A stretch of 32,000 nt of DNA, from the NCBI RefSeq assembly GCF_008000775.2, contig NZ_CP042905.2, positions 3,210,001 to 3,242,000 on the forward strand, given 5' to 3'. The notes beneath the pieces were generated by a model. The model ran no database searches, was not told where the DNA came from, and saw only the letters and a program-made list of their open reading frames with translations. This DNA is from Promethearchaeum syntrophicum. GTDB taxonomy: Archaea > Asgardarchaeota > Lokiarchaeia > Sigyniarchaeales > Promethearchaeaceae. The translations under genes were made by a program, and so were the position numbers. Numbering within the stretch: position 1 is the stretch's first letter; each line of letters opens with the position of its first letter. This document shows, one piece after another, positions 3,215 through 27,788 of the stretch.

Positions 3215-3538
3215 TTAATATAAACGGTACATCGTTTCTAAGCTATTTTCTATTATATTCATTGTCCGGTTTAGTTTTTTCTCTGAAAATATTATAGGTC
3301 TTAGAAAATCTCTAATAGTACTTTCGATTTTTTTTATTTCATTCAATCGCATATTAGGGGATGCTGTAAATAAAGTCAAGACATCGTTTTGTTTATTGTA
3401 ATTTATTAGAGCTTGTTCTGTGTATTTTCTAGCTAATTCTGGGCTTATCCTTCCTTTTTCAGAAATTAATTCAACCATTTTATTGAATTCCTTCAAGCGG
3501 TATTCATGAGAGATAAATTTGTTTACACTACCTTCCAT
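3215..3538 (-). CDS. Hypothetical small helical protein (107 aa)
   Basis: A perfect GGTGAT Shine-Dalgarno box lies 6 nt upstream of the ATG at 3538. The composition is protein-like. I recognise no family. Confidence 0.55.
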   Translation of the reverse strand: MEGSVNKFISHEYRLKEFNKMVELISEKGRISPELARKYTEQALINYNKQNDVLTLFTASPNMRLNEIKKIESTIRDFLRPIIFSEKKLNRTMNIIENSLETMYRLY

Positions 3539-3592
3539 AATAAAATCACCGTTACAATAAGGAAAATTCTATATCAAAAATGTTTCGAATTC

Positions 3593-3601
3593 AAAAAAAA
3601 A
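3593..3601 (-). terminator. Oligo-T (T9) tract downstream of the SBBP-repeat gene
   Basis: A9 on the + strand reads as T9 on the - strand, about 15 nt past the stop at 3616. Confidence 0.4.
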
Positions 3602-3615
3602 TAAGAAAAGTTAAA

Positions 3616-8838: not shown

Positions 8839-8979
8839 ATCTAATATATTGATAACAATGTTAATAAATACACTACAAATTAGTGTACATTCATTCTTCC
8901 TTCTCATATCGACAAAATCAATAAATAAGAAATTTTTTTAGAAATGGACAACTTAAATTCACAAGATTAATTTCTATAT

Positions 8980-10279: not shown

Positions 10280-11032
10280 ATGGACCAACAAGATTCAATT
10301 TTTATTCAAAAATTTCCCGTTCGGTATGGAGATATTGATATTTCAGGATATGCAAGTATTAAGAGTTTTTTTAGTAATTTTCAAGAAATTGGTTTTAATC
10401 ATGCTGATATTTTAGCCCAAAAATATAATGGAAAGAAAGAATTTTCTTTTGCTGTTGTATGGACTAAATTAAATGTAGTTATGAAAAGAATCCCAAAATG
10501 GAAGGAAATGCTTACTTATTCATCTTGGATTTCTCCGCTAATTCAAAATTCTAAAATTGCTACAAGAAATTTCAAAATTGAAGATTCTCAACATAACCAA
10601 ATTGGGTATGGTTATGGTACTATGGTCTTTTTTGATATGGTAAAACGGAAATCTATAGAAATACCTAAAGAATTGCTTATCTATCCAACTCATGATTATT
10701 CTATTGGAAATCATGAATTTTCAAAATTAGATAATCTGAGTACCTATGATTATCAAATAACAATTAAAACACAGTATACAGATTTAGATATATATCGTCA
10801 TGTAAATAATGTACGTTATATTAACTGGGTTATTGATTCCATGCCTCTCGATATACTAAAAAAGAAAAAATGTTATGAAACCGAAATCCATTTTTTAAAT
10901 GAAGCAAAAAATGGAATATTAGTTAAATCAAACACTAAAATACTAACTGAAAATGAAAAAATTTCAGCAAATCATGAAATAATTCGAGAAGATGGAAAAT
11001 CAATTGCGCGAGTTAAAACGATATGGAAATAA
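10280..11032 (+). CDS. Acyl-ACP thioesterase family protein (double hotdog fold)
   Basis: At 250 aa it has the length of the family. The N-terminal half reads FPVRYGDIDISGYASIKSFFSNFQE.GFNHA and the second half reads YTDLDIYRHVNNVRYINWV. This matches the FatA/FatB-type acyl-ACP thioesterase (PF01643-like) pattern. Confidence 0.7.
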   Translation: MDQQDSIFIQKFPVRYGDIDISGYASIKSFFSNFQEIGFNHADILAQKYNGKKEFSFAVVWTKLNVVMKRIPKWKEMLTYSSWISPLIQNSKIATRNFKIEDSQHNQIGYGYGTMVFFDMVKRKSIEIPKELLIYPTHDYSIGNHEFSKLDNLSTYDYQITIKTQYTDLDIYRHVNNVRYINWVIDSMPLDILKKKKCYETEIHFLNEAKNGILVKSNTKILTENEKISANHEIIREDGKSIARVKTIWK

Positions 11033-11065: not shown

Positions 11066-12583
11066 TTAAAATAAGAACAAGTTTTTTCCAGCATAAACGG
11101 GATCGCTGGTCAATCGAACTCCCAATGTTCTGAGTCCGGCTTCATCTCCGAAGGACGGAATGTGAGTTAAATGCATTTCACAATTTTTAAGTTCCTTTAG
11201 ATGATCCAAAGCCACTTTCGCGGTCGGATTTGTAATGGCACTTATACTCAGTGCAATCATAGTTTCCTCCAAATTCAAACTCACATTTGCAGATTTTCCT
11301 AAGCTTTCTTTCAATTCACCAATGGATTCCATTATATTCGGGGAAAGAAGATAGATTTTTTTAGGAATTTTTGCAATAATTTTGATTGCATTTATGATAA
11401 CCGCGGAGGGTGCATGCATAAGCGGCGAATTTTTTCCGGTTACTATTGTTCCATCGCTCAAAAGGATCGCTGCTCCCGAGAAAATTCCAGAATGACCTTT
11501 TCCTCTTTTTTTTGCTTTTTCTGCAGCTTTACGAGCAGGTTGAACGATTACTCGATCAGTGGGGGAAACACCTACTTCTTCCATTATTAAATTAATTCGA
11601 TCTGTGGTCGATTTTGGTGTTCGCCCCGCAGCATATTCTGAATGATAACTAAAATATCTGCGTATAATTTCTTCTTTTGCAGCTTTTTGCACAGCAATAT
11701 TATCGACGATTGCAAATCCGGCCCTATTTACCCCCATATCTGTAGGAGATTGATACATATTTCCATCCCCCATTATTTTAAATAAAATTTTTTTCAAAAC
11801 GGGAAAAGCGGCAACATCTCTGTTATAGTTTACGGCAGTAATTTTATGAGTTGCCAAGTGAAAGGGATCGATTTCATTGTAATCTCCAAGATCTGCAGTT
11901 GCAGCTTCATAGGCAATGTTAACTGGATGTTTTAGAGGAAGATTCCATATGGGGAAGGTTTCGAATTTTGCATATCCTGCTTTAATTCCTCGCTTGTGTT
12001 CATGGTATACTTGTGATAGGCACGTAGCCATTTTTCCACTACCAGGCCCAGGTCCCGAAACAACGACAATTGGTTTATTAGTCTCAATAAACGGATTTGC
12101 TCCATAACCTTCCTCACTAACAATGTGATCTACGTTAGTGGGATAACCATGGATTGTTTGATGAACATATACAGGAATATTATTCAATTCCAAGACGCGT
12201 TTAAATTGGATAACTGAGGGATGAGATTCATATCGGGTGATTACTACCCCACATATTTCCAATCCCCAATCTCGTAAATCATCAATGAGTTTTAGTGTTG
12301 CTTGATCATAAGAAATTCCAAAATCGGCACGAATTTTGCGACGTTCTATGTCCCCAGCATGAATGCATATGATGATGTCTAATTTATCTTTTAATTGCTG
12401 TAATAATTTCATTTTTACATTTGGATCATAGCCGGGAAGCACACGGGCCGCATGCATATCAAACATTAATTTCCCACCAAATTCTAAGTATAGTTTATTT
12501 CCATACTGTTTGGCCCGTTCAAGAATGAATTTTGTCTGTTCCTCTAGATATTTAAGATTATCAAAGCCCACAGAAATTTCCAT
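11066..12583 (-). CDS. DUF1846 (UPF0371) family protein
   Basis: The pattern GFDNLKYLEEQ...KLYLEFGGKLMFDMHAARVLPGYDPNVK and the ~500-aa length are typical of DUF1846. The start is placed at the ATG at 12583 (MEISVGFD). The upstream 29 codons of the longest ORF look like AT-rich read-through. Confidence 0.85.
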   Translation of the reverse strand: MEISVGFDNLKYLEEQTKFILERAKQYGNKLYLEFGGKLMFDMHAARVLPGYDPNVKMKLLQQLKDKLDIIICIHAGDIERRKIRADFGISYDQATLKLIDDLRDWGLEICGVVITRYESHPSVIQFKRVLELNNIPVYVHQTIHGYPTNVDHIVSEEGYGANPFIETNKPIVVVSGPGPGSGKMATCLSQVYHEHKRGIKAGYAKFETFPIWNLPLKHPVNIAYEAATADLGDYNEIDPFHLATHKITAVNYNRDVAAFPVLKKILFKIMGDGNMYQSPTDMGVNRAGFAIVDNIAVQKAAKEEIIRRYFSYHSEYAAGRTPKSTTDRINLIMEEVGVSPTDRVIVQPARKAAEKAKKRGKGHSGIFSGAAILLSDGTIVTGKNSPLMHAPSAVIINAIKIIAKIPKKIYLLSPNIMESIGELKESLGKSANVSLNLEETMIALSISAITNPTAKVALDHLKELKNCEMHLTHIPSFGDEAGLRTLGVRLTSDPVYAGKNLFLF

Positions 12584-12916
12584 ATCAGAAAATATCTTAT
12601 AAACTATAAAAATCTGCATAAATACGAGATTAACATGAAAATTTCTTGATAAAAACAAACCAGCATACAAGTTTACTAAAAAATTGGATACCTTTGGATT
12701 ATTAAAAAAAAAATCTACAAATTGAATTTAACATTGGGAAATTTATTCTCACATCTAAGCAAGCGTGAAAACGAGGGTTATGTATTCGTCAAAAAGGAAA
12801 TTATTGAAAAAAAGCTAAGGACAACAGTAAAAATTACTGAATTAGGCCCACAACAATTCTTAAGATATCGTAAACAAATGATAACGCTTTTAGAATGATT
12901 GTTTGATATTTTTTTT

Positions 12917-15723: not shown

Positions 15724-16293
15724 TTAAGAGTTTTTTTTTTGAAATTCTAAATATACCATTCGCTCGGAACAGATAGTTTTATCCGAAACCATTTCGAAAT
15801 TGAAGGAACGTATAGTTAAAATCTGTTGGAATATAGCAAAGAAGATATCCGACCATTTTTTACCCATATCGTGGGTCCCTTTAAAATAAAAGGGAGGATT
15901 CTGCACTTCATTTTCCATTTGCCGAAACCACCGAAGACCTGTTTTTTCTCCAATGAACTTGGACATTGTGGTAATAAATTCTTCCAAATTAGAAGAATTG
16001 GCGTTTTTCTGAATGCTATATTCGTAATATTCAATTATACTTTCGGCAATATTAGAAATAAAAGAGTGCAGCTGATCTTCTTCCAACATTTCTAGAAGTT
16101 TTGCATAAGAAGATCGGTTGACGGTGATCATAGAGGAATTACGGGTCCAATAACTCTCGATCCATTCCAAAATGGCGATTTTTGCCAATTGGTTGGGAGT
16201 CTGGTTTAAATTGTCAGCTATTTTTTCTAATCTCGCTAGAATTTCTTCCGGTAAGCGTATACCAATAAATTTTGAAGGGATTGTTATCACCAA
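15724..16293 (-). CDS. Ribbon-helix-helix (CopG/Arc-like) domain regulator with an uncharacterised C-terminal domain
   Basis: KFIGIRLPEEILARLEKIADNLNQTPNQLAKIAILEWIE reads as a strand-helix-helix RHH motif. The start is moved to TTG 16293 or GTG 16290 for two reasons: RHH strands sit at the N terminus, and a TTATATAA box (16310-16317) lies ~20-25 nt upstream, suggesting a leaderless mRNA. The longest ORF reaches 16383 through low-complexity sequence. Confidence 0.55.
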   Translation of the reverse strand: MVITIPSKFIGIRLPEEILARLEKIADNLNQTPNQLAKIAILEWIESYWTRNSSMITVNRSSYAKLLEMLEEDQLHSFISNIAESIIEYYEYSIQKNANSSNLEEFITTMSKFIGEKTGLRWFRQMENEVQNPPFYFKGTHDMGKKWSDIFFAIFQQILTIRSFNFEMVSDKTICSERMVYLEFQKKNS

Positions 16294-16343
16294 ATTTTGA
16301 AGGATTAAATTATATAAGCATTTGATACATTTAATAATATTTA

Positions 16344-16357
16344 TTATCAATTGATAA
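16344..16357. promoter_or_regulatory. Perfect 14-bp palindrome TTATCAATTGATAA, candidate operator
   Basis: Read directly from the sequence. It lies between the divergent RHH-regulator and flavin-reductase-like genes, downstream of a TATA-like TTTAATAATA (16329-16338) and 25 nt upstream of the ATG at 16382. A second palindrome, ATGATCAT, lies at 16361-16368. Confidence 0.35.
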
Positions 16358-16381
16358 CATATGATCATGTGAATAAAAATC

Positions 16382-17302
16382 ATGGCTAGCAGTTTTGAAA
16401 ATCTTCCGATCTTGGATAATTTTTACCAAACATCCAGTTTTTTTCCAATGCCTATAGTTCTAGTGGGAACTCTCGATGAAACAGGTCAAACCAACTTGGG
16501 GCCCTATTCTTTATGTTTTCCATATTATATTGCCGGGAAAAAGCGATATACAATGGTCCTCATGTGCCGAAATAATAGTAATACTGCGAAAAACATCTTG
16601 CGATCGAAAAAATGTTCCCTTAATTTTATCCCTCATGATAATAAATTTCTTAAAAATACCGTAATGTTGGGATTTCCCGGAGATACGACAGCGGAAAAAA
16701 TGGAGAAATCTATATTTTCTTTAACTGAAGGATTAATGCAAAGTGAAAACTCTGCAGAATTATACCCACAAATAGTGGAGGAATCATTTCAAGTCTTCGA
16801 ATGCACTTGGGACGCAAGTCTGGACGGAGCTGAAAATGATACCGTTCAAGAGGAATATTTACCTCCATTTCATAATTTTAATGGGATTACCAGCCCAATG
16901 GGAGCCCACTTTATTTTATCAATTGATAAGATCTTAATGAAACCTAAATACCGTAAAGCAATTATTGATGGAGTTCAAACGAAATATTTCCCTAACATTC
17001 CTGTAGATTATGGTTATCGAGACAATACGAATTTTTGGTTAGCTAAATTTAAAAAGCCATATGCTGAAAAAATTCCGAAAGGTAAGGGAATAAGTTTGGA
17101 CACCATAACTTACGCTGCAGATCGTACAGATTCGGATGTAAAATTTACGGATGATGCATGTGCTACTCTGATAAAAGTACCTCGAATATTCTTGAAGAAA
17201 ATTTTACAAGATTGCGTAGTTTGGGCTAAAAATCGAGACATTACACTTATTAATGAAGAACATATGCAACAAATTCGTGACAAACGATCAGCTAACAAAT
17301 AA
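16382..17302 (+). CDS. Flavin-reductase-like (FMN-binding split-barrel) domain protein with an extra C-terminal region
   Basis: The N-terminal pattern FFPMPIVLVGTLDETGQTNLGPYS...MVLMCRNNSNTAKNI...KCSLNFIP resembles the flavin reductase-like domain. The C-terminal ~130 aa are unassigned. This is a by-eye call only. Confidence 0.45.
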   Translation: MASSFENLPILDNFYQTSSFFPMPIVLVGTLDETGQTNLGPYSLCFPYYIAGKKRYTMVLMCRNNSNTAKNILRSKKCSLNFIPHDNKFLKNTVMLGFPGDTTAEKMEKSIFSLTEGLMQSENSAELYPQIVEESFQVFECTWDASLDGAENDTVQEEYLPPFHNFNGITSPMGAHFILSIDKILMKPKYRKAIIDGVQTKYFPNIPVDYGYRDNTNFWLAKFKKPYAEKIPKGKGISLDTITYAADRTDSDVKFTDDACATLIKVPRIFLKKILQDCVVWAKNRDITLINEEHMQQIRDKRSANK

Positions 17303-17369: not shown

Positions 17370-17545
17370 CATCATTTTTACCCATCTTTGTGGGAAGTTA
17401 TATAATATTTCACATAAATCATCATAGTAAAATTAGGATTTCCTACTGATCATATTAGTAATATTATGGATTTATTAAATAACCATCTTATTAAATAGAT
17501 ACATATCTAATTATTCATTTTGAGTGAAAAGAGTGAAAATATTAA

Positions 17546-18409
17546 ATGGCTGAATTCGCAGGAAAAGTTGCACTAGTTGCTGGAAATCTTGGAAGATTTA
17601 AAAATGATAAGTTTAAAATGGGTTTAAGTGGAATAATTGCGCAAAATCTCATAAAAAATAATTGTAAAGTTTGCATTGTCGATACTGATTATAAAATCGC
17701 CAAAGCATGTGCAGAAAAAATTAACAATGAAAACGTAAAAGCCTATGAAGCGGATTTGTTCATCGAATGTGAATCAGAAACCGAAAAATTCGTTGATCAT
17801 AAAGGAAGAGATAAAACCAAAGTCATTTGGACAAAAGCGCCTGCTCATGAATTAGTTCAAAGTATAATTAAAGAATTTCAAAAATTGGATATTCTGATAA
17901 CAAATTTTGATAAATTTGAACAAGCGCGCATAGATCAAACTGATGATGAACTTTATGACTATTTACGTGATCAAAACACACTCCCAGTATTTCATTTGAT
18001 AAGTGCAGTAAGGGACGTAATGTCGAATCAGAGAAAAACAGAAGGAACTTATGGAAAAATCGTTTTCATTACCAATATTGTTGGAAAAGCAGGATTATCC
18101 TTTGCTACTATGTATTCGGCATTTAAAGGTTCTTTAGTAGGATTAACAAAATGTTTGGCAAAAGAATTTGGAACTTTTGCAAATGTGAATTCAGTAGCGA
18201 TTGGTCCTCTATCAGAAAGGAAAATGCAAGGACCAAAAGAACGTATCAAGAAAGATTACTTACTAACACAAACCGCAGTGTGCGATAAACCGCTTTCTTT
18301 CCAGGATATTGCACCTCTTGCAACATTTTTAGCATCGGATGATGCAGTTGCAATAAATGGCCAGGTTATGAATGTTGACGGCGGTTTATGGCTCAAATTA
18401 GAAGCTTAA
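17546..18409 (+). CDS. Divergent short-chain dehydrogenase/reductase-fold protein (module A, gene 1)
   Basis: The Rossmann/SDR layout is present but the motifs are degenerate. The glycine loop AGNLG-RFKNDKFKM-GLSGIIA carries an insertion. TNFD replaces NNAG. ITN sits at the catalytic Ser position. YSAFK (YxxxK) is retained, and the protein ends in NGQ...VDGG. It is about 60 percent identical by eye to ORF 22093-22956. Confidence 0.75.
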   Translation: MAEFAGKVALVAGNLGRFKNDKFKMGLSGIIAQNLIKNNCKVCIVDTDYKIAKACAEKINNENVKAYEADLFIECESETEKFVDHKGRDKTKVIWTKAPAHELVQSIIKEFQKLDILITNFDKFEQARIDQTDDELYDYLRDQNTLPVFHLISAVRDVMSNQRKTEGTYGKIVFITNIVGKAGLSFATMYSAFKGSLVGLTKCLAKEFGTFANVNSVAIGPLSERKMQGPKERIKKDYLLTQTAVCDKPLSFQDIAPLATFLASDDAVAINGQVMNVDGGLWLKLEA

Positions 18410-18456
18410 TGTTATCGATATTAAATATTTTGAATAAAAAAAAGAGTTGAAAAATT

Positions 18457-19317
18457 ATGGCAAGTTCGGTTCAAAAAAATAAGACATCTTTAAATGCAGA
18501 AGAAAGTCAAAGTGGAATAAATTTAATGCACGGATTGTTGGTTGGTAAAACTGCAATAATTACTGGAAGTTCTCGTGGAATTGGTAAAGGTTGCGCTCAA
18601 GTTTTCATCGAACAAGGGGCAAAAATTGTTATTAATGGACGAGATGAGGGTGTTTGTCGAGAAACTTATCAAGATATAACAAAAAATGGAGGGGACGCCA
18701 TTATTTGCCCAGCGGATATTACAAAAAAAGATGAGGTTAATAAAATGATTACAAATACTATCGATGCTTTTGGGCATATTGATATTGTTGTGAATAATGC
18801 GGGAACCAGTAGAGACGCATTGATCCATAAAATGTCGGATAGTTTGTTTAAATTCATTTTTGATTTAAACCTGAAAGGGACTCACAATGTCACACAAGCG
18901 ATTCTTCCGGAGTTTAGAAAAGAAAGCAGAAAGGATGAATTTAAAAAAATAATTAATTTTTCATCTGTGGCCGGAATATCGGGTAATCTTGGGCAAACAA
19001 ACTATGCAATGGCTAAAAGCGGAATTATTGCTTATTCAAAAGCATGCGCACGGGAATTGTCGTTAGACCGTATCAATGTTAATGTTATTGCACCAGGATT
19101 CATAGAAACACGAATGACAGCAGCTAAAAAACCGGGAGATACATTAGGAATGCCTCAATCGGTAAGAAATCTGGCAATTTCTTCAATCCCATTTTCCCGT
19201 GGAGGGGGAGGAGGATTACCACTTCATGTAGGAAATGTCGCATTATTTTTAGCGAGTAATTTATCTGATTGGTTAACAGGTCAAACCTTCACTGTTGATG
19301 GAGGTTCTTATATCTGA
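18457..19317 (+). CDS. Classical SDR, FabG-like 3-oxoacyl reductase family (module A, gene 2)
   Basis: All classical motifs are present: GKTAIITGSSRGIGKG, NNAGTSRD, NFSSVAG, YAMAKSG (YxxxK), APGFIETRMT and TGQTFTVDGG. The start context AGAGTTGAAAAATT-ATGGC resembles those of the neighbouring genes. Confidence 0.9.
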   Translation: MASSVQKNKTSLNAEESQSGINLMHGLLVGKTAIITGSSRGIGKGCAQVFIEQGAKIVINGRDEGVCRETYQDITKNGGDAIICPADITKKDEVNKMITNTIDAFGHIDIVVNNAGTSRDALIHKMSDSLFKFIFDLNLKGTHNVTQAILPEFRKESRKDEFKKIINFSSVAGISGNLGQTNYAMAKSGIIAYSKACARELSLDRINVNVIAPGFIETRMTAAKKPGDTLGMPQSVRNLAISSIPFSRGGGGGLPLHVGNVALFLASNLSDWLTGQTFTVDGGSYI

Positions 19318-19422
19318 TCTCATGGGATCGGGTATAATTTTTTAATATAACGATTATTTCTTGCAAAAGAATAATAAATAAAAAAAAAGTAAAAAAATAT
19401 AAACAAAAAAAAGTGAAAAATT

Positions 19423-19695
19423 ATGGCAAACGTAGTAAAAGGAAAATTCAATGTAAAATTGGAAGAAATGGCAGACACAAAGTTTTCACCAAGAGCAACC
19501 AGTTCAGCTTCTGCACGATTAAGAATCTTGAATGAATCTAATTTGGTATGTTTTGGAAATAGTTGTACTGAAGAAGAACTTGCAAAATGGGAAATGCTTT
19601 GCAACGAAGATACCGTAACCGCACAATTAGATCATATGGCGGGTAAAATGTATGCAAATGGTGTGGAATTTAAGAACGGAAAGTTTGAATTCTAA
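19423..19695 (+). CDS. Hypothetical small protein (90 aa) downstream of SDR module A
   Basis: The composition is protein-like. The start context AGTGAAAAATT-ATGGC is nearly identical to those at 17546 and 18457. The ORF is followed by three T6 runs. The overlapping antisense ORF 19320-19604 is low-complexity and was rejected. Confidence 0.5.
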   Translation: MANVVKGKFNVKLEEMADTKFSPRATSSASARLRILNESNLVCFGNSCTEEELAKWEMLCNEDTVTAQLDHMAGKMYANGVEFKNGKFEF

Positions 19696-19717
19696 TTTTT
19701 TATTTTTTCAATTTTTT
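19696..19717 (+). terminator. Triple oligo-T terminator (T6 A T6 CAA T6)
   Basis: It follows the TAA at 19693-19695 directly. The - strand reading shows A runs only, so it does not serve the convergent GDPD gene. Confidence 0.5.
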
Positions 19718-19722
19718 ATCAA

Positions 19723-21219
19723 TTAATTCAGATTCTTTCTATTTCTTAAGATATACATCAAAGTAGCACCAATTAGACTTAGTATTATCGATATTGTCCA
19801 AATTAAGTTATATCCTTGTGAATTAATTGTCCAAACAGGAGTTTCTAATGGGATTAATAGGTGTAAAGCGTTAGTTTTAACAAAATCCACACCCAAAAAC
19901 CAAACTTGAGAAAATCTTTGTACTGTATCTACCGTCCACACCATTACAGTAATATTTGCATCTTGATACTCTTGAAATTGATCATTTGATAAAGTGTGGA
20001 TTGTATTTAGTAGATCTACTTCTTCTTCTAATAAACTAGCAATGTCTTGAGAAGACGATATTTTAGTCATATTTTTGGTTAAATTTGATGATAGTCTGGT
20101 TATTATTTTTTCATTTAATCCTGAATCATATAATTGATTTATGAGAAGTTCATCATACTGGTTATAAAAAGGATGTTCTTTAGGAGGTTTTCCTGAATCA
20201 ATATCGATATAAAGGTTATAATCTCTGGTTAAATTCAAAACTTCATCTAACGTGGGTATTTTTTCTCCCCTAAAATTTTCTGCTGTTTGTAAATCAACAA
20301 ATTCATCTGCAATTGTTTCGTATGGATCATCATCAGAAAACCAAGACCCAGCATCCAATAATCGTAAATCCGTAATGTTAAACATAGTTGCATCATCATT
20401 TATCCTTTCGGGAAAGATATCTTCGACATTAGTAGTTCTTTTCAAAAGACTATCATGCATTAGGAAAAAAATTCCATCGTAGCTAATAGACACATCAACT
20501 TCCCAACCGATCGCGCCAATTTCGGCGGCCATTTGTCCAGCGATTAAAGTGTTTTCTGGAGCTAAATGTGAAGCGCCTCTGTGAGCCATAAGTTTTGGTT
20601 TAGGAGGGATATCTCCTTGAATGACATTAACTGGAATGAATATGAACGGTAGAATAAATCCAAACAATATTATCATGAGAATTCCAGCTATTATTAAAAG
20701 ATCCTTATTAAAAGTGAATTTCCAACGTTCTTGTTCTTTGATTTCTTCCCAAATTTTTATAATATTGAAAATGATTTTTTGTGATGAAAATGTCATTATT
20801 AATATCAAGAAGAAGAAAATTATGGGACTAATATATTCTAATCCAGTCCGCACTATGCCGATCTCATCTCCACCTATCGAAATAAGTAAAAACAACATGA
20901 AATCCCATATTATAAGAACAGGAATAAGAAATATTCTTGGAAATAATGCAATTTTGTTCAAGTTCTTTGTGATTCTTTTTGGAGACAATCGAATAATTAG
21001 AAATAATCCGTAACCAGTTAGAAAAATTGATACTATAAGAAGTAACATCAGCCATTGAAATTTTAAATTTGTGAATTCACTCACAAAATAATTGATATCG
21101 GACCATAAAGGTCTTACTAATAAAATAATTAACGAGAAGATCAAAATATTTACAAAAAATATCCAAAAAACCGTATACCAAAATCTATATCTCCATAAAA
21201 AACTCTTATCAGATTTCAT
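19723..21219 (-). CDS. Polytopic membrane glycerophosphodiester phosphodiesterase (GDPD domain)
   Basis: The first ~200 aa contain about six hydrophobic helices. The GDPD catalytic motifs follow: MAHRGASHLAPENT, GWEVDVSISYDGIFFLMHDSLLKRTTN and GEKIPTLDEVL. A final C-terminal TM helix is present (IWTISIILSLIGATLMYIL). Confidence 0.85.
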   Translation of the reverse strand: MKSDKSFLWRYRFWYTVFWIFFVNILIFSLIILLVRPLWSDINYFVSEFTNLKFQWLMLLLIVSIFLTGYGLFLIIRLSPKRITKNLNKIALFPRIFLIPVLIIWDFMLFLLISIGGDEIGIVRTGLEYISPIIFFFLILIMTFSSQKIIFNIIKIWEEIKEQERWKFTFNKDLLIIAGILMIILFGFILPFIFIPVNVIQGDIPPKPKLMAHRGASHLAPENTLIAGQMAAEIGAIGWEVDVSISYDGIFFLMHDSLLKRTTNVEDIFPERINDDATMFNITDLRLLDAGSWFSDDDPYETIADEFVDLQTAENFRGEKIPTLDEVLNLTRDYNLYIDIDSGKPPKEHPFYNQYDELLINQLYDSGLNEKIITRLSSNLTKNMTKISSSQDIASLLEEEVDLLNTIHTLSNDQFQEYQDANITVMVWTVDTVQRFSQVWFLGVDFVKTNALHLLIPLETPVWTINSQGYNLIWTISIILSLIGATLMYILRNRKNLN

Positions 21220-21261
21220 TAGTTATTGAAAAATCGAATTAAGTATTGAAAAAGATTTCCG

Positions 21262-21271
21262 AAATAATATA
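21262..21271 (-). promoter_or_regulatory. TATA-like box (TTTTATATTA on the - strand) upstream of the GDPD gene
   Basis: It lies between the T10 tract that follows the FabG-like gene and the GDPD ATG at 21219, about 45 nt upstream of that ATG. The AT-rich context makes this uncertain. Confidence 0.3.
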
Positions 21272-21275
21272 AAAG

Positions 21276-21285
21276 AAAAAAAAAA
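21276..21285 (-). terminator. Oligo-T (T10) terminator after SDR module B
   Basis: A10 on the + strand reads as T10 on the - strand, starting 2 nt after the TAA stop at 21288-21290. Confidence 0.5.
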
Positions 21286-21287
21286 GA

Positions 21288-22085
21288 TTAAATCATTGAG
21301 CCGCCGCCACCAACTAAAAGCTGGCCGGTAATCCAATCACTTAATTCACAAGAGAAAAATAACACAATTTTAGCAATATCTGAAGGTAATCCTCCTACCC
21401 CATCGCGTGAAAATGGAATTGCCCCAATCGCAATATCTCGAATGGCTTGAGGAATACCCAATTTATCTCCAGGTTTTTTCAAAGCAGTCATCCGAGTTTC
21501 TGTGAATCCAGGAGCTATTGCATTAACGCAAACGCGGTTCAAAGAAAACTCTCTAGCACAAGACTTTGTATAAGCAATTAATCCACCTTTTGCAATGGCA
21601 TAGTTTGCTTGACCTACATTTCCAGACACACCAGTTGTTGAAGAAAAGTTCACAATCTTTTTGAATTCATTATTTCGTTCAGCTTTTAAGAATTCTGGTA
21701 GAACTGCTTGAGTACATACATGAGTGCCTTTCATATTAACATCGATTATAAAACGTAATAAGCGATCGTCCATTTTCTGTATCATAGCATCGCGAGAGGT
21801 CCCTGCGTTATTTATTAATATATCGATTTTTCCAAAAGCTGCTATAGTGTCCGCGACCATTTTATTAACTTGTTCTACATTGGTAACATCTGCTGGGCAT
21901 GCTATTGCTTCCCCACCCATTGCCTTAATTTCCTCAACAGTTTCATTACATGGTATAGGATCTATATCATTAATCGTCACTTTACACCCTTGCTCAACGA
22001 ATACTTTTGCAATACCTTTTCCAATTCCTCTTCCGCTTCCAGTGATTATGGCAACTTTTCCTTTTAATAATTCTTTCATTTTCAT
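21288..22085 (-). CDS. Classical SDR, FabG-like 3-oxoacyl reductase family (module B, gene 2)
   Basis: Classical motifs are present: GKVAIITGSGRGIGKG, NNAGTSRD, NFSSTTG, YAIAKGG and APGFTETRMT. It is about 60 percent identical by eye to ORF 18457-19317. The start is placed at ATG 22085 or 22079 because TAGGAGGG, an SD box overlapping the upstream stop codon, lies immediately upstream. The longest ORF (to 22145) would overlap the upstream gene by 53 nt. Confidence 0.9.
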   Translation of the reverse strand: MKMKELLKGKVAIITGSGRGIGKGIAKVFVEQGCKVTINDIDPIPCNETVEEIKAMGGEAIACPADVTNVEQVNKMVADTIAAFGKIDILINNAGTSRDAMIQKMDDRLLRFIIDVNMKGTHVCTQAVLPEFLKAERNNEFKKIVNFSSTTGVSGNVGQANYAIAKGGLIAYTKSCAREFSLNRVCVNAIAPGFTETRMTALKKPGDKLGIPQAIRDIAIGAIPFSRDGVGGLPSDIAKIVLFFSCELSDWITGQLLVGGGGSMI

Positions 22086-22092
22086 TTCCCTC

Positions 22093-22956
22093 CTATTGCT
22101 CCAACTTGAGCCAAAGTCCTCCATCCACAGATATACTTTGTCCATTAATTCCTATCGCATCATCAGAAGCTAATAATAATACCATGGGTGAGACTTTTTC
22201 AAATGTCATTGGTTGATTGCTTAAATCAGATGATGTTACTAAATACGCTCCTTTTACCCGATCTTTTGGACCTTGCATTTTTTTTTCAGATAATGGTCCA
22301 ATTGCAACTGCATTTACATTAGCGAAACGACCAAATTCCCGTGCTAAACTCTTTGTTAATCCGATCATTGCTCCTTTAAATGCTGCCCAAATGGCACCGG
22401 CACTCATTCCTGCTTTTCCTAGCATACTTGTCAAAATGACTACTTTTGCATAAGTTCCTTGAGTTTTCCTTTGAGTTGATAATTGATCACGAACAGCACT
22501 TAGTAAATGAAAAGTTGGCCAAACATTTTGATCTCGTAAATAATCGAATAATTCCATATCAGTTTGATCTACCCTTTTCCGTTCAAATTTATCAAAATTA
22601 GTAATCAGAACATCCAATTTACCGAATTCTGCGACTATATCTTCTACCATTTTTAATGCTGGAAAGTTTTTCCAAACAACTTTGGTTTTATTTTTGCCCC
22701 GATCATCAACATATGCTTCAATTTCGTATGTTCTCTCTGTAAAGAAGTCACATTCGTAAGCTTTGACATTTCCGCCTATTAATTCAGCACATGCTTTAGT
22801 GATCGCAAAATCGGTATCAACTAAACACACTTCTTGAGCGCCTTGTTCAATCATCTGTTTAGCAATTATGCCGCCCAATCCGATTTTAAACGCATCTTTT
22901 TTCATTTTGCCGAGATTTCCACCTACAAGGCAAATTTTTCCATCAAATTTTCCCAT
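22093..22956 (-). CDS. Divergent SDR-fold protein (module B, gene 1)
   Basis: It is a paralog of 17546-18409, with the same inserted glycine loop (GGNLG-KMKKDAFKI-GLGGIIA) and TNFD in place of NNAG. Here the YxxxK Tyr position reads W (IWAAFKG). The start is placed at ATG 22956 because MGKFDGK aligns with MAEFAGK and GTGA lies 7 nt upstream. Confidence 0.75.
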   Translation of the reverse strand: MGKFDGKICLVGGNLGKMKKDAFKIGLGGIIAKQMIEQGAQEVCLVDTDFAITKACAELIGGNVKAYECDFFTERTYEIEAYVDDRGKNKTKVVWKNFPALKMVEDIVAEFGKLDVLITNFDKFERKRVDQTDMELFDYLRDQNVWPTFHLLSAVRDQLSTQRKTQGTYAKVVILTSMLGKAGMSAGAIWAAFKGAMIGLTKSLAREFGRFANVNAVAIGPLSEKKMQGPKDRVKGAYLVTSSDLSNQPMTFEKVSPMVLLLASDDAIGINGQSISVDGGLWLKLEQ

Positions 22957-23120
22957 TTTCATTCACTTTTTTTTAAAAATTAACTCGAAAATTATTCGTA
23001 TTTTAAAAATTCTTATTTCAAATTAGGGTTGATCGTTATAAAAAGATATTTTGAGAATTTTAACTGAAAAGCGGAAATTAACAAAAGTAGTGATTTTTGA
23101 AAATTTGGGTAATAATGAGG

Positions 23121-23151: not shown

Positions 23152-23733
23152 TTATTGTAAATCATATTCCAATTTGTTTCCACAAAATTCGCAATAAACG
23201 GATTCTGATTCCGATAATATCCGCATCATTTCATTTGTAAATGTTCCACCACAATTTGGGCAATGGAGTAATTGTTGGAATTTGATAACGTCATTTCTTA
23301 CGCTTGTTTGAGCCATTACCTTAGTAGGTCTTGCTGGTTGTGCTGGTCTTGCTGGTGGTGCTGGTCTTGCTGGTGGTGCAGGTGCTACAGGCGGTGCGGG
23401 CGGGCGAGTATACCTTCGTGCGGGTCTACTAATCTTTCTTGGACGATCATACCTATAATGATAGTGTCTATGATGTTTTCTCGGAACAAACAAAGATCTA
23501 ATGAAATTGAACAGAATTTTGAAAATCTCAAAAACCAATTGAAAGACTGCTTTCACTATATAGAAAACCAATGAAAACGATCCTACAGTCAAAGCAACTA
23601 GACCAACTAAAATCAAAATTTGATATATTAGTGGTAGAGTATGCATCCAATCTCGGGCTGTGATAAAAAAGTCCCAAAAGGAATCGAAGGTAAAATGATA
23701 CCCGAATATATAAACATCAGTATTTATATCCAT
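23152..23733 (-). CDS. Membrane protein with a Pro/Ala/Arg hexapeptide repeat linker and a C-terminal zinc ribbon
   Basis: Two hydrophobic helices (PLIYQILILVGLVALTVGSFSLVFYIV and neighbouring sequence) are followed by the basic stretch RKHHRHYHYRYDRPRK. The repeat PPAPPVAPAPPARPAPPARPAQPARP comes next. The protein ends in CPNCG...CEFCG. Confidence 0.7.
   Translation of the reverse strand: MDINTDVYIFGYHFTFDSFWDFFITARDWMHTLPLIYQILILVGLVALTVGSFSLVFYIVKAVFQLVFEIFKILFNFIRSLFVPRKHHRHYHYRYDRPRKISRPARRYTRPPAPPVAPAPPARPAPPARPAQPARPTKVMAQTSVRNDVIKFQQLLHCPNCGGTFTNEMMRILSESESVYCEFCGNKLEYDLQ
23327..23398. repeat. Coding 18-nt tandem repeat (3 near-perfect units plus 1 degenerate)
   Basis: The units are GGTCTTGCTGGTTGTGCT, GGTCTTGCTGGTGGTGCT, GGTCTTGCTGGTGGTGCA and GGTGCTACAGGCGGTGCG. 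The repeat forms a GC-rich island in an AT-rich window. It encodes the APPARP-type repeats on the - strand. Confidence 0.9.
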
Positions 23734-23845: not shown

Positions 23846-24703
23846 ATGAATAAAATTTTAGAAGGAAAAACTGCTTTAATAACAGGATCTAGCCAAGGGA
23901 TAGGAAAGGCTTTGGCAATAGGTTTTGCAAAAATGGGTGCAAATATAATAATTACTGGCCGAAATCAAGAAAATATGGAAAAGACACTCCAACAAGTGGA
24001 AGAACAAGGAGGAAAAGGAATTATTGTTCCGGGAAATGTTCAAAATTATGACGAAGTCCAGAATATTATAACCATCGGAAAGGAAAAATTCACTCATATC
24101 GATATTCTGATTAATAACGCAGGTTTTTCTCGCCTGAAACCCATCCATAAGATGAGAGTGGAGCAATTTGAAGACATCCTTAAAACCAATGTGTTAGGAG
24201 TATATAATTGTTCCCATGCAATTGTTCCTCATATGATGGAAATTGGCGGGGGGACTATTGTGAACACGGGGAGTGCAATCATAAGTTCACCGGGTCCTAG
24301 ATGGAGTGCATATTCAATGTCAAAATCAGCTCTTTTAGGATTTACAGAAAGTTTAGGCATTGAATTGAAGGGAAATAGAATTAATGTTAATACGATAATG
24401 CCGGGTCCTGTTAACACTCCATTATTTCGTATGGGTATGACGGAAGATATGATTAAAGCAATAGGTCCCATGGCACCAGAAGATCTTGTTCCTTATTATG
24501 CCTTTTTTGCAACAGATCAAGGAAAAAAAGTGACCGGTTTAAATGTAGATATGAATATTTGCAAGTCAGTAATGGAAATGGGTGATAATTTGAACCAATG
24601 GTCTGAAATAAAAGAAATTGCACAAGAAAAATTAAAACCTGAATCATTTAAAGCAGCGAAAAAATATAGAAAGCTAATTAATTTCATATTGCAAAATAAT
24701 TGA
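23846..24703 (+). CDS. Classical short-chain dehydrogenase/reductase
   Basis: Classical motifs are present: GKTALITGSSQGIGKA, NNAGFS, GSAI (Ser region), YSMSKSAL (YxxxK) and MPGPVNTP. A ~40-aa C-terminal extension follows. Confidence 0.88.
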   Translation: MNKILEGKTALITGSSQGIGKALAIGFAKMGANIIITGRNQENMEKTLQQVEEQGGKGIIVPGNVQNYDEVQNIITIGKEKFTHIDILINNAGFSRLKPIHKMRVEQFEDILKTNVLGVYNCSHAIVPHMMEIGGGTIVNTGSAIISSPGPRWSAYSMSKSALLGFTESLGIELKGNRINVNTIMPGPVNTPLFRMGMTEDMIKAIGPMAPEDLVPYYAFFATDQGKKVTGLNVDMNICKSVMEMGDNLNQWSEIKEIAQEKLKPESFKAAKKYRKLINFILQNN

Positions 24704-25451: not shown

Positions 25452-26543
25452 TTGACATTAAATTGGTCGAGTAATGTAATTGTTGGTTTTGTGGGATTTA
25501 TTCCATCCTTGATGGCAACTATTTTCACATTTATTCAATATTTTAAAAATAAATACACCCATCTAAAATATTATGGAGGGATGTGGTTAATGTTATCAAT
25601 ATGGATACTATTCCAGGCAATATCAGACCTTTTTTTATCTATTCCGCTCCATTTTCTTGTGTTTTATGCTTTAATCATTTTTTCTTATTTTGTAAATCTT
25701 TCAGTTGATACGATTACGCGAGATTCCATTGATCCCTATAAAATGTTCTTTACGACGATAGCATCAAGTTTTGTTGTTATTCTCTCATTTGATTTTAATA
25801 ATTTTCCAACCTTCAACCCTGATGCAATAATTATTGACCCGGAGGCTGTGACTCCTTACCCTACTATGAATGGAAGTTTTAAGATTGCAGTAATGATTGC
25901 AGCAACTTTATTGATTTCAATAGCGCTCTACGGAAATTTCAAAGTATTAATTCATTCTCCAAAAAAACTTAAAAAATACTCACTACTCAATATTTTGGGA
26001 ACATATTTATGGGGTATTCAACCTGTTTGGATACAAGTGACCCATTTGGAAGAAGTTTATCCTGGACTCGCGACAGGTAGCATGGCTCTTGGCTTAGTAA
26101 TAATTGCTATAATCACTTTAAAAGAACCAAAATTAGCATATATACTCCCTTTTAAAGCATATAGAATTTTGATCCAAAGAACTGATAATGGTGACATTTT
26201 ATTTAAACATGATTGGAACAAACTCGAAGCTCCAGGAAGTGAAGAAATTTTTTCCAGAATGATGCAAGCGGTTAATACAATGTTTGATATGACAATTAAT
26301 AAAGGAAATGTCAAAAATATTAAGTTTGATGAAGCTGAAATTACGTTCAAAGTGAGTAAAGTAGCACCCCTTGTGTGTATTTTAATCTCCAGCGATTATT
26401 CTATTACATTAAGAAATTCGTTTGATACATTTGCGAATGAAGTTTATAAAGATTTCATTAATGATAAAAATAATTTTCTCTCAATGAATAAAAATAATAA
26501 AGGAATGATTATTTTAAAGAAAAATTTTCCATATATTCCATAA
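25452..26543 (+). CDS. 7-TM membrane protein with a C-terminal longin/Roadblock-like domain, paralog 1
   Basis: Seven hydrophobic segments are followed by a ~125-aa soluble tail. It is colinear with the next two genes. The TTG start at 25452 gives (M)TLNWS, matching MVLNWS of the paralogs. Confidence 0.7.
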   Translation: MTLNWSSNVIVGFVGFIPSLMATIFTFIQYFKNKYTHLKYYGGMWLMLSIWILFQAISDLFLSIPLHFLVFYALIIFSYFVNLSVDTITRDSIDPYKMFFTTIASSFVVILSFDFNNFPTFNPDAIIIDPEAVTPYPTMNGSFKIAVMIAATLLISIALYGNFKVLIHSPKKLKKYSLLNILGTYLWGIQPVWIQVTHLEEVYPGLATGSMALGLVIIAIITLKEPKLAYILPFKAYRILIQRTDNGDILFKHDWNKLEAPGSEEIFSRMMQAVNTMFDMTINKGNVKNIKFDEAEITFKVSKVAPLVCILISSDYSITLRNSFDTFANEVYKDFINDKNNFLSMNKNNKGMIILKKNFPYIP

Positions 26544-26699
26544 AATCCTCTTTAAAATTTTTACAATATGAGAAAGAGTGAAAAATATAGAATTTTGCGT
26601 AAAATTAATAAAAATTCCCAAAATTGGAATAATCTTAAATAATATTACAACAAATTGTACAATAATCAATCATTCAAAAATTTTAAACTTGTGAAAAAA

Positions 26700-27788
26700 A
26701 TGGTTCTAAATTGGTCAGCAGGAGTAATAATCGCGTTTATTTCATTAATTCCATCAACAGCCGCAACAGTATTAACACTCATTCAATATTCAAAGGATAA
26801 ATATACTCATTTGAAATATTTAATGGGAATGTGGGCTTGCTTAACTATTTGGATTCTTTTTCAAGCTATCGGGGATTTACTTTTAAGTATTCCCCTTCAC
26901 CTTATTTGTTTCTATTCTTTAATTGGAATGGGCTACTTTGCCAATCTATTTGTTGATTCTATTACGCGCGATTCAGTTGATCTTTTTAAAATGATCATAA
27001 TGACGATTGCATCGAGTGCGGTTTTTATTTTTTCATTTGCAGAGGATGCCGTAATCATTGATCCAGATGCTGTGACTCCATATCCAACAATGCATGGAAA
27101 CTTCCGAATTGCTTCGCTAATTCATATGGTTATTTTTATTTTGGTAGTAGTTTATGGAAATCTAAAAGTATTTCTATATACACCTAAGCATTTAAAATTT
27201 TATTCCTTTTTAAATCTCTTTGGGGCATATTTATGGGGAGTACAACCATTATGGATTCAATTCACTGATTTGGAAAAAATATTTCCGGGATTGGCAACGG
27301 GTAGTATGGCAATTGGGACTTTAATAATTGCTCTTGTTCTTATAAGGGAACCTAAATTAGCATATATTTTACCTTTCAAAGCATACAGAATTCTTATTAT
27401 GGATACAAATAGCGGGATCATTCTCTATAAACATGATTGGAATGAACTCAAAGCCAAAAGTAGTGAAAATATATTTTCAGGAATGTTACAAGCAATTAGC
27501 ACTATGTTTGATCACACCATTAACAAAGGAAATGTTCGCGAAATAAATTTTGATGAAGCAGTTTTAAGCTTAAAAATATCGAAAAAAATACCCATTGCGT
27601 GTATTTTAATTTCAAGTAATATAACTAAAACGTTAAGAACCTCTTTTGAAAATTTTGCAGATGAAGTGTTCCAAGATTATGAAAAATTAACAGAGAATGC
27701 TATAATACAAAAGAACTATGAAAAAGGGAAAAATATTATTGAAAATCATTTTCCTTTTGTCCCGCAACTTGGTCAATTAAAACAATAG
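26700..27788 (+). CDS. 7-TM membrane protein with a C-terminal longin/Roadblock-like domain, paralog 2
   Basis: The start is placed at ATG 26700 (MVLNWS) with GTGAAAAAA immediately upstream. The longest ORF starts at a TTG at 26655. The architecture matches that of paralogs 1 and 3. Confidence 0.75.
   Translation: MVLNWSAGVIIAFISLIPSTAATVLTLIQYSKDKYTHLKYLMGMWACLTIWILFQAIGDLLLSIPLHLICFYSLIGMGYFANLFVDSITRDSVDLFKMIIMTIASSAVFIFSFAEDAVIIDPDAVTPYPTMHGNFRIASLIHMVIFILVVVYGNLKVFLYTPKHLKFYSFLNLFGAYLWGVQPLWIQFTDLEKIFPGLATGSMAIGTLIIALVLIREPKLAYILPFKAYRILIMDTNSGIILYKHDWNELKAKSSENIFSGMLQAISTMFDHTINKGNVREINFDEAVLSLKISKKIPIACILISSNITKTLRTSFENFADEVFQDYEKLTENAIIQKNYEKGKNIIENHFPFVPQLGQLKQ

Follow-up and report, generated by a model that had tools for sequence, protein, structure and literature searches.

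Paired SDR genes of Promethearchaeum syntrophicum, duplicated as a unit: putative two-subunit SDRs of Promethearchaeota

Petunia benzaldehyde synthase is an α2β2 enzyme of a canonical catalytic and an inactive SDR subunit (ca. 30% identity); the tetrad positions of its β subunits vary among orthologues, and with its C-terminus the inactive subunit completes the acyl-CoA pocket (PMC13418739). Further heterotetrameric SDRs cited in that paper are BbsCD and HSD17B8/CBR4. BbsCD, which serves anaerobic toluene degraders as (S,R)-2-(α-hydroxybenzyl)succinyl-CoA dehydrogenase (von Horsten et al. 2022, FEBS J, as cited in PMC13418739), is a bacterial α2β2 tetramer with a pseudoenzyme subunit and a hydroxyacyl-CoA substrate. 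HSD17B8/CBR4, the human mitochondrial ketoacyl reductase (Venkatesan et al. 2014; PDB 4cqm), is a heterotetramer of NAD-type and NADPH-type SDR paralogues acting on 3-oxoacyl/3R-hydroxyacyl thioesters. Bacterial FabG and Sulfolobus acetoacetyl-CoA reductase are single-gene classical ketoreductases; the latter belongs to the archaeal CoA-dependent chemistry of the Sulfolobus fatty-acid synthase complex and binds the thiolase/DUF35 complex, with no second SDR (bioRxiv 10.1101/2024.07.05.601840).

The window, i.e. the whole stretch of 32,000 nucleotides that was analysed, contains two SDR gene pairs, A and B, with the following features in and between them:

17546..18409, + strand: A1, divergent SDR, putative subunit; 287 aa, SDR-like AF2 fold
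18457..19317, + strand: A2, canonical FabG-like SDR, A-type partner; 286 aa, called from motifs and profile score
19423..19695, + strand: orf90, small conserved protein; 90 aa, homologues in Promethearchaeota
19723..21219, − strand: polytopic membrane glycerophosphodiester phosphodiesterase (GDPD); PF03009 match over residues 213–450
21288..22085, − strand: B2, canonical FabG-like SDR, B-type partner; 265 aa, called from motifs and profile score
22086..22092, − strand: B1–B2 spacer; 7 nt, read from the sequence
22093..22956, − strand: B1, divergent SDR, putative subunit; 287 aa, alternative ATG at 22962

An earlier note on this DNA had described a two-gene SDR module present twice in inverted orientation, and all four reading frames were found as it had them, in the same gene order and on opposite strands (A1 and A2 on +; B1 and B2 on −). 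The start of B2 at 22085 is supported by the length of its homologues (263–265 aa). All four products match SDR families of Pfam; A2 and B2 match adh_short with E = 1e-48 to 9e-50, and the matches of A1 and B1 are weak or confined to the C-terminal two thirds. Counterparts, judged by eye to be about 60% identical, gave 59% identity for A1 and B1 (287 aa, E = 3e-135) and 62% for A2 and B2 (263 aa, E = 1e-125); A1 and A2 share only 24%. The two modules had also been said to converge on orf90 and the GDPD gene. Both genes do lie between the modules, but orf90 shares the strand of module A and the GDPD gene that of module B; the arrangement is therefore one of two convergent strings, A1-A2-orf90 and B1-B2-GDPD, with 27 nt between their ends. 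At the B1–B2 spacer, GGAGG overlaps with the stop region of B1 and suggests translational coupling of B1 and B2; a T10 run follows immediately 3' of the B2 stop codon.

Partner (A2, B2): TGxxxGxG, NNAG and the N-S-Y-K tetrad of classical SDRs are intact in both proteins. A2 carries an N-terminal extension of ca. 25 aa and 'IN-GRD' at the end of β2; B2 lacks the extension and reads 'IN-DID' at the same place. Over the partner family, Ser, Tyr and Lys are each present in 82 of 82 clusters, as is TGxxxGxG, and the full N-S-Y-K tetrad in 76 of 82. Of the single-domain PDB matches, Bacillus anthracis FabG scores best (182 bits); the higher score of yeast MFE-2 (2et6) is a sum over two domains, each of which scores below FabG. 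A KxxGDxLGIP insertion is shared with stand-alone deltaproteobacterial relatives. dN/dS: 0.065–0.09 (A2), 0.03–0.04 (B2).

Divergent SDR (A1, B1): in both proteins the classical TGxxxGxG motif is interrupted by an insertion of 9–12 aa between the first Gly and GxG, and an invariant N-F-D replaces NNAG. In A1 the Gly-rich loop is extended by a hairpin of 9 aa, NNAG is changed to NFD, the C-terminus forms a GLWLKLE tail and the triad is N-Y-K, with Asn at the position of the catalytic Ser; B1 has the same insertions and tail and an S-W-K triad with Trp for the catalytic Tyr. A complete S-Y-K triad is found in 30 of 80 family members; Ser site (n = 80): S 41, N 31, C 8; Tyr is kept in 75 of 80 (Trp in 5) and Lys in 74 of 80 (Asn or Ser in 6). 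Invariant or nearly so are G13, G16, G26, D46, D70, F121, D122, K181, W282, K284 and E286. The closest folds to the AF2 model of A1 are FabG. The divergent SDR is under strong purifying selection, with dN/dS of 0.07–0.08 for A1 against its orthologues and 0.10 for B1 against a related B-type pair (locus L004); across all four SDR genes dN/dS is 0.03–0.10. A FabI-type enoyl reductase was considered and rejected for the divergent SDR: the spacing is YxxxK and not Tyr-x6-Lys, and instead of GxxxxxSxA the Gly region has G-N-L-G-(insertion)-G-L-G/S.

The pair was present in all relatives examined: the divergent SDR lies 0–47 nt 5' of its FabG-like partner, on the same strand, at 23 of 23 loci, all from Promethearchaeota, and this holds also for the most divergent family member (40% identity). 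The divergent family comprises ca. 84 clusters, all named members coming from Promethearchaeota (Lokiarchaeota), and its edge is sharp (at least 167 bits inside, next 89 bits outside); the partner family is of about equal size (ca. 82 clusters). No divergent SDR accompanies the closest bacterial relatives of the partner (ca. 45% identity), which are stand-alone genes. Distance matrices of the two families are strongly correlated (Mantel r = 0.79, 0 of 5000 permutations). Two distinct SDR paralogues are thus encoded and inherited together, one with a strict active site and the other degenerate yet selected, as in a heteromeric SDR; the proposal that the two SDR types belong together is borne out.

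Comparison with the known systems: like BbsCD, the Lokiarchaeial pair consists of adjacent SDR paralogue genes, one of them for the (here predicted) catalytic subunit, and an equivalent of the α2β2 tetramer with its pseudoenzyme subunit and hydroxyacyl-CoA substrate may be supposed; unlike BbsCD, it is archaeal. BbsC has lost NAD binding, whereas the cofactor contacts are kept in the divergent subunit, which also differs by its two hairpin insertions and by a tail conserved at the C-terminus. BbsD (PDB 7pcs_B) is among the sequence matches of B2 (E = 4e-41); the divergent subunit showed no specific sequence kinship to BbsC, its nearest solved structures being ordinary FabG. The invariant GLWLKLE end parallels the pocket-completing C-terminus of the inactive petunia subunit. 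The petunia enzyme differs in being eukaryotic and peroxisomal, with genes outside an operon and reductive thioester cleavage as its reaction, and no Gly-loop insertion is reported for it, unlike the divergent subunit. With an Asp (NAD-type) and a Gly-Arg (NADP-type) subunit the A-type pair resembles HSD17B8/CBR4, in which, by contrast, the catalytic residues are intact in both subunits. Among the fold matches of A1, 4cqm_D ranks 43rd, and 4cqm is not among the top 60 sequence matches; no preferential sequence affinity to HSD17B8/CBR4 was seen, and common ancestry of the human and Lokiarchaeial pairings is not indicated. The partner is a FabG-like ketoreductase as are FabG and the Sulfolobus enzyme, which unlike it are single-gene SDRs. 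No biochemical data on a complex of the paired SDRs were found in the literature.

Two classes of pair are distinguished by the partner: A-type partners have the N-terminal extension and IN-G/S-R, B-type partners the short form and IN-D[IV]D, with perfect correlation and no exception among 79 classable clusters (20 A-type, 59 or 60 B-type). The pattern left three of the 82 clusters unclassed, namely a truncated sequence, one in which Asn occupies the signature position and one with SR (A-type by eye). Coenzyme preference would accordingly be NADP-type for A-type partners (Gly-Arg) and NAD-type for B-type partners (Asp); the call is read from single signature residues. A2 scores 47 bits higher with the A-type than with the B-type partner profile, B2 82 bits higher with the B-type partner profile and B1 29 bits higher with the B-type divergent-SDR profile; for A1 the A-type profile is ahead by just 3.7 bits. 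NJ trees of both genes hold a split of B-type from A-type plus outgroup sequences; its bootstrap in the divergent-SDR tree is weak (26%), and an uncorrected NJ tree places A1 beside the B clade with 64% support. The window contains both classes, as do Lokiarchaeum ossiferum and two or three MAGs of Promethearchaeum.

Neighbouring genes: orf90 is predicted to have a disordered N-terminus followed by three helices (AF2 pLDDT 66), and its model gave no fold match; dN/dS 0.13–0.21. Its family comprises 17 clusters, all from Promethearchaeota, and homologues lie 3' of A-type pairs in Promethearchaeum (L001–L003), L. ossiferum (L006, two tandem domains) and L025. At L006 and L009 the A-type pair has Rpb7 upstream and orf90 downstream, and by this module A retains the ancestral synteny. 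The GDPD gene lies 68 nt 3' of B2 on the same strand; the B1-B2-GDPD order recurs in L004 and L016 and not at the B-type pairs of other genera. GDPD is thus a genus-specific neighbour, probably outside the core of the SDR unit. A-type pairs of other Lokiarchaeia stand beside a thiolase (L006, L010, L025), an MFE-2-type hydratase 2 (MaoC; L011) or an acyl-CoA dehydrogenase (ACAD) with ETF (L025). No thiolase or hydratase adjoins the SDR pairs in the window or the B-type pairs, so the substrate is assigned from the gene context of relatives.

It is very improbable that the two modules go back to a local inverted duplication of recent date or were acquired independently by horizontal transfer, their shared order being incidental. 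The copies are inverted and 2 kb apart, and a few inverted DNA matches between A1 and B1 were found (46–105 nt, 71–80%). Synonymous sites between A and B are, however, saturated (pS 0.70–0.73) and third-position identity (0.41–0.48) is at the inter-genus level; both classes occur in many other lineages, and in L. ossiferum they lie more than 1 Mb apart, from which it follows that the pair was duplicated as a unit long ago. Composition and codon usage of both modules, which the earlier note had wished to see compared, are native (GC3 0.22–0.25), and no transposase domain, flanking terminal repeat (their absence had been noted before) or plasmid match was found around either module. The claim that the pair and not a single gene was duplicated stands, since the partner-defined classes co-occur in genomes of at least two genera and both trees hold the A|B split; it is amended in that the duplication is ancient and no local inverted one, the inverted adjacency being the only Promethearchaeum-specific part. 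It is scarcely conceivable that the divergent SDRs are decaying, non-functional remnants of a FabG-like tandem duplication, even with NNAG changed to NFD, the Gly loop interrupted, the Ser site variable and Trp at the Tyr position of B1: the frames are intact in ca. 84 clusters across the phylum, dN/dS is low, more than 25 columns are invariant, the extreme C-terminus (WLKLE tail) among them, and the AF2 fold of A1 is confident (pLDDT 90).

More serious, though still unlikely, is the explanation that the pair encodes independent enzymes acting at different steps of the same pathway (e.g. a ketoacyl-CoA reductase together with either an enoyl-CoA reductase or an SDR of some other non-canonical activity), adjacent for co-regulation only, the divergent SDR being active through a modified active site. 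Its best Pfam match is adh_short_C2, named for enoyl-ACP reductase; Tyr and Lys are retained in ca. 93% of divergent subunits and the cofactor contacts (G13, G16, G26, D46, D70) are kept, together with the invariant Lys181 near the active site, so many could still be active enzymes; and the A-type operons of relatives contain thiolase and dehydratase and no obvious enoyl reductase except ACAD/ETF. Against it, the Tyr-Lys spacing and Gly motif depart from the FabI type, Tyr (W, as in B1) or Lys (N or S) is missing from entire subclades that are under purifying selection, and the strict 1:1 coupling, very short gaps and correlated evolution exceed what is usual for pathway neighbours.

By analogy with the known heteromeric SDRs, each module most likely encodes a heteromeric SDR of a catalytic and a non-canonical subunit, probably acting on 3-oxo/3-hydroxyacyl-CoA (probability ca. 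0.6). Each module would be a co-transcribed two-gene unit, with the downstream gene (A2/B2), whose cofactor and catalytic motifs are all intact, for the catalytic subunit. The upstream gene (A1/B1) would provide a lineage-specific paralogous subunit released from the canonical catalytic requirement, which keeps the dinucleotide contacts, has two extra β-hairpins beside the cofactor site and the WLKLE tail, and may serve as a structural or substrate-pocket-forming, possibly NAD-binding, part of an α2β2-type assembly. The pair would have arisen once in Promethearchaeota (Lokiarchaeota) and been duplicated as a unit before the split of Promethearchaeum and Lokiarchaeum, the copies then specialising by coenzyme, NADP-type in A and NAD-type in B, as their signatures suggest; the likely reaction, judged from the gene context of relatives, would be 3-oxoacyl-CoA ⇌ (3R)-hydroxyacyl-CoA.

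The two SDR modules of the window (AT-rich, GC content 32%) and the genes between them are as follows; "partner" denotes the FabG-like SDR downstream of a divergent SDR:

17546-18409, + strand: A1, divergent SDR of module A
18457-19317, + strand: A2, FabG-like SDR (partner) of module A
19423-19695, + strand: orf90, ORF of 90 aa
19723-21219, - strand: GDPD, polytopic membrane glycerophosphodiester phosphodiesterase gene
21288-22085, - strand: B2, FabG-like SDR (partner) of module B
22093-22956, - strand: B1, divergent SDR of module B

The four SDR open reading frames were found where the earlier note had placed them, and its description of the modules (divergent SDR then FabG-like SDR, opposite strands, about 60% identity per gene) was borne out: A1 and B1 are 59% identical over the full length (E=3e-135), A2 and B2 62% (E=1e-125); A1 and A2 are only 24% identical. 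The modules also converge as described; orf90, being on the + strand, and GDPD, on the - strand, are therefore continuations of modules A and B, respectively, and not a common centre, the stop codons of the convergent strings A1-A2-orf90 and B1-B2-GDPD lying 27 nt apart. A purine-rich 'AAAAGTGAA'-like element is located 8-12 nt 5' of the ATG of A1, A2, orf90 and B1 (17520-17545, 18436-18456, 19402-19422 and 22957-22980), and a classical GGAGG 5' of B2 (22086-22098); possibly these are two types of ribosome-binding signal. For orf90 no Pfam match was obtained, its homologues are lineage-restricted hypotheticals only, and its AF2 model was of low confidence and gave no match in a fold search.

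Searching with A1 gave a compact family (about 84 clusters at at least 167 bits, then an abrupt fall to ordinary bacterial FabG at no more than 89 bits), all named members of which are Promethearchaeota or an unclassified archaeon. The partner family is discrete as well (about 82 clusters at at least 274 bits) and nearly 1:1 with the divergent family; its next-best relatives are stand-alone bacterial SDRs of about 45% identity with no divergent SDR adjoining, in which the KxxGDxLGIP loop insertion of the partner is also present. The pair was surveyed in one genome per species (17 archaeal loci) and in 4 contigs fetched for the most divergent members; a FabG-like SDR was located 3' of the divergent SDR on the same strand in 21/21 complete and 2/2 truncated loci, with a gap of 0-47 nt in the surveyed archaeal loci. 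Pairwise distances of the two genes correlate tightly (Mantel r=0.79, 0/5000 permutations, 21 pairs). The proposal that the two SDR types belong together, with the pair as a conserved neighbourhood in relatives, is upheld by this constant adjacency, the matching cluster numbers and the correlated distances. No described Asgard paired SDR was found in the literature searched.

The partner belongs with the classical, FabG-like SDRs; none of its 82 clusters departs from TGxxxGxG or lacks Ser, Tyr or Lys. Among solved structures it is closest to FabG enzymes, to both SDR domains of yeast MFE-2 and to BbsD. A specific kinship to yeast MFE-2 or HSD17B8/CBR4 was rejected, being unsupported by per-domain scores or ranks. 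The model of the divergent subunit has the SDR fold (pLDDT 90, pTM 0.90; nearest structures FabG, TM about 0.75-0.9). Two insertions form hairpins in the model: a beta-hairpin of 9-12 aa, which splits the Gly-rich loop, and one of about 17 aa after beta3. An invariant N-F-D stands in place of NNAG. The position of the catalytic Ser is occupied by S (41 clusters), N (31) or C (8); Tyr is replaced by Trp in 5 clusters and Lys by Asn or Ser in 6; the complete triad is present in only 30/80 clusters, and both window copies are incomplete (A1, Asn-Tyr-Lys; B1, Ser-Trp-Lys). Invariant or nearly so are the glycines, Asp46 of beta2, Asp70, Lys181 and the extreme C-terminus GLWLKLE-x. As the divergent protein passes neither the classical-SDR nor the FabI motif tests, the proper name for its group is a Lokiarchaeota-specific family of the SDR fold (Lokiarchaeota being the former name of Promethearchaeota).

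Because Tyr, Lys or Ser were lost in different subclades while the cofactor-contact residues and the tail were kept, the divergent protein looks more like a non-catalytic or accessory subunit than an independent dehydrogenase. The best-supported mechanism for each module is a heteromeric SDR (probability about 0.6), in which the chemistry would be done by the partner and the divergent subunit, which may bind NAD, would be required to assemble or stabilise the enzyme or to form its substrate pocket. The genes have the genomic and sequence features of a catalytic-plus-degenerate SDR heteromer; the complex itself is predicted. In the petunia benzaldehyde synthase the tetrad positions of the beta-subunit vary between orthologues and the CoA pocket is completed by the C-terminus of this subunit (PMC13418739); BbsCD and human HSD17B8/CBR4 are cited as further heteromeric SDR precedents in that paper. 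The Lokiarchaeial pair would resemble these systems in its working. For the archaeal fatty-acid synthase a preprint describes one SDR as the reductase, attached to thiolase/DUF35, and no second SDR (bioRxiv 10.1101/2024.07.05.601840). The serious rival, that the divergent SDR is itself catalytically active and serves a different step (for example as an enoyl-CoA reductase), is rather unlikely: retention of Tyr and Lys in most members and conservation of the cofactor residues speak for such activity, but the spacing is YxxxK and not of FabI type, and whole subclades are under selection without Tyr or Lys. A pseudogene origin of the divergent SDRs is contradicted by their invariant columns and by dN/dS (0.07-0.10; partners, 0.03-0.09), purifying selection being equally strong on both genes.

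Two classes of the heteromer candidates were distinguished by their partners: A-type, with an N-terminal extension of about 25 aa and 'IN-G-R' after beta2; B-type, with no extension and 'IN-D-I/V-D'. By pattern, 19 of the 82 partner clusters were GR and 59 or 60 were D-type; one Ser-Arg cluster with the extension was put in A-type by eye (20 A-type), and two clusters, one truncated and one with Asn at the signature position, were not classed. Extension and signature residue co-occur without exception in all classed clusters. Both classes are present in one genome in the window, in Lokiarchaeum ossiferum (1.60 and 2.87 Mb) and in Promethearchaeum MAGs. Upstream of the A module Rpb7 is found in L. 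ossiferum (L006) and a second relative (L009), as in the window, and downstream an orf90 homologue in five relatives' loci (L001-L003, L006, L025); this synteny shows module A to be the one in the older location. The inverted adjacent layout occurs in Promethearchaeum only, e.g., in locus L002 and in a 12.7-kb contig common to proteins P0006 and P0140, and GDPD beside module B is confined to the same genus.

NJ trees of both genes (42 pairs, gamma-corrected distances) share a bipartition with all B-type pairs on one side and the A-type pairs and outgroup on the other, with bootstrap of 67.5% for the partner and only 26% for the divergent gene, so that phylogeny favours co-duplication through a split common to both trees, held with low bootstrap in one of them. 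A1 had been placed beside the B clade (64% support) with 21 pairs and uncorrected BLOSUM distances, a hint of incongruence or gene conversion; with the split recovered in the 42-pair trees, this placement was rejected and is treated as a long-branch or sampling effect, support being still low. Class profiles were built from non-Promethearchaeum sequences and scored against the four SDRs of the window.

Better-scoring class profile and its margin for the four SDRs of the window
A2: A-type partner, +47 bits
B2: B-type partner, +82 bits
B1: B-type divergent, +29 bits
A1: A-type divergent, +3.7 bits

Between the A and B copies synonymous change has reached saturation (pS 0.70-0.73), and third-position identity is not above that between genera; thus there is no sign of recent duplication or gene conversion. 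The A-versus-B dN/dS proposed in the earlier note was uninformative because dS is saturated, and orthologue comparisons were used in its place. GC3 and codon usage, the composition check also proposed there, are in both modules like those of the window's housekeeping genes. Recent local duplication or HGT as the source of the modules is contradicted by the saturated sites, the two classes across the partner clusters and this native composition. Absence of transposases and terminal repeats, as claimed, was confirmed: no transposase domain was found among the proteins neighbouring the modules and no terminal repeats flanking the copies; a plasmid search of the region gave no match, and a mobile-element origin was rejected on these three counts. 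That the pair duplicated as a unit is supported, with the amendment that this happened long ago, that the inverted adjacency is secondary and that GDPD is an incidental neighbour; the window modules are well explained as an ancient paralogous operon pair and are not a recent rearrangement.

Further observations were made around the modules. A Kae1 (TsaD)-Bud32 (RIO-type kinase) fusion (34-1809, -) has ribosomal protein S24e and DUF359 genes as neighbours, an ordinary context of archaeal housekeeping genes, and confirms that the region is chromosomal. The interval from the o342 homologue to A1 contains two genes, one hypothetical (15724-16383, -), with an odd GC3 of 0.356, and one flavin-reductase-like (16382-17302, +); the same interval is only about 220 bp in the Promethearchaeum MAG loci L001 and L003. 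Region 15724-17302, immediately 5' of module A, is a strain-specific indel of some 1.6 kb. Module B is divergently adjoined by a third, unrelated SDR (23846-24703, +; 285 aa; classical, motifs intact, C-terminal extension; 31% identical to B2), an arrangement kept in the relative's locus L004. The ORF at 23152-23733 (-) contains a 9-nt periodic DNA repeat (23318-23398) encoding a Pro/Ala/Arg-rich tract (PAPPARPAPPARPAQPARP); its product is membrane-anchored with a zinc ribbon at the end. Tandem esterases (6569-7672 and 7741-8907, -) are 60% identical and tandem polytopic membrane proteins (25452-26543 and 26655-27788, +) 58%; with the SDR modules, three independent duplicate sets of 58-62% identity lie within 32 kb, which hints at an old duplication burst in the lineage. 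Locus L003 has tandem DUF1846 genes (49-1566 and 3008-4525), 90-91% identical to the single copy of the window (11066-12670).

Elsewhere in the Lokiarchaeia a larger operon begins with the A-type pair (L006 8250-10152; L010 7829-9584; L011 1956-4859; L025 9757-15489); it contains a small orf90-like protein, a thiolase and a conserved protein of about 170 aa, followed by either MFE-2-type hydratase 2 (L011) or acyl-CoA dehydrogenase and ETF-beta/alpha (L025). The 170-aa protein gave no match in Pfam or in a profile search of PDB sequences, and its assignment as SCP2-like, supported by neither, was dropped. The domain set recalls eukaryotic peroxisomal beta-oxidation and suggests 3-oxoacyl-/(3R)-hydroxyacyl-CoA as the substrate class of the A-type pair; the reaction would be 3-oxoacyl-CoA ⇌ (3R)-hydroxyacyl-CoA. 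In the window the thiolase, hydratase and ACAD/ETF genes of these operons do not adjoin the SDR pairs; the surroundings hold two esterases and acyl-ACP-thioesterase-like, GDPD and ETF-alpha genes, a lipid flavour that bears weakly on the substrate. The GC3 of the thioesterase-like gene (10280-11032, +; PF01643 and PF20791), 0.156, is the minimum for the window; archaea are not expected to use ACP. The dependence of coenzyme on the beta2 signature is an established rule for classical SDRs, and the signatures suggest that the A complex would use NADP(H) and the B complex NAD(H).

The two genes currently carry generic labels, either 'SDR family oxidoreductase' or else '3-oxoacyl-ACP reductase', with 'L-rhamnose 1-dehydrogenase' in one case; the last name (NCBI and UniRef, 'L-rhamnose 1-dehydrogenase (NADP(+))') belongs to P0189, the A-type partner of L. 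ossiferum (L006 6873-7721), and given family and operon context is probably a transferred annotation. If the two genes encode one enzyme, Lokiarchaeial annotation should change to two subunits of one enzyme, and this would be the first archaeal catalytic-plus-degenerate SDR heteromer, such heteromers having been found so far in bacteria, plants and human mitochondria. Since the A-type pair occurs with thiolase, MFE-2-type hydratase and ACAD/ETF in relatives, it gives a concrete, testable entry point to the making or burning of fatty acyl-CoAs in Asgard archaea, a question bearing on the 'lipid divide' and eukaryogenesis. A far-reaching version, speculative and improbable as a whole, is that Lokiarchaeia have their own obligate two-subunit acyl-CoA ketoreductase/dehydrogenase, the cofactor-binding, catalytically relaxed subunit of which would form part of the pocket (C-terminal tail and hairpins) or act as a sensor of the NAD(H) pool; of the two ancient versions, the NADP-type (A) and the NAD-type (B) would drive an acyl-CoA cycle, R-specific and independent of ACP, in opposite directions, towards synthesis versus degradation. 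If true, the closest archaeal relatives of eukaryotes would own a fatty-acid cycle of another kind than the archaeal thiolase/DUF35 synthase, and its logic would resemble that of the eukaryotic HSD17B8/CBR4 and MFE-2 systems.
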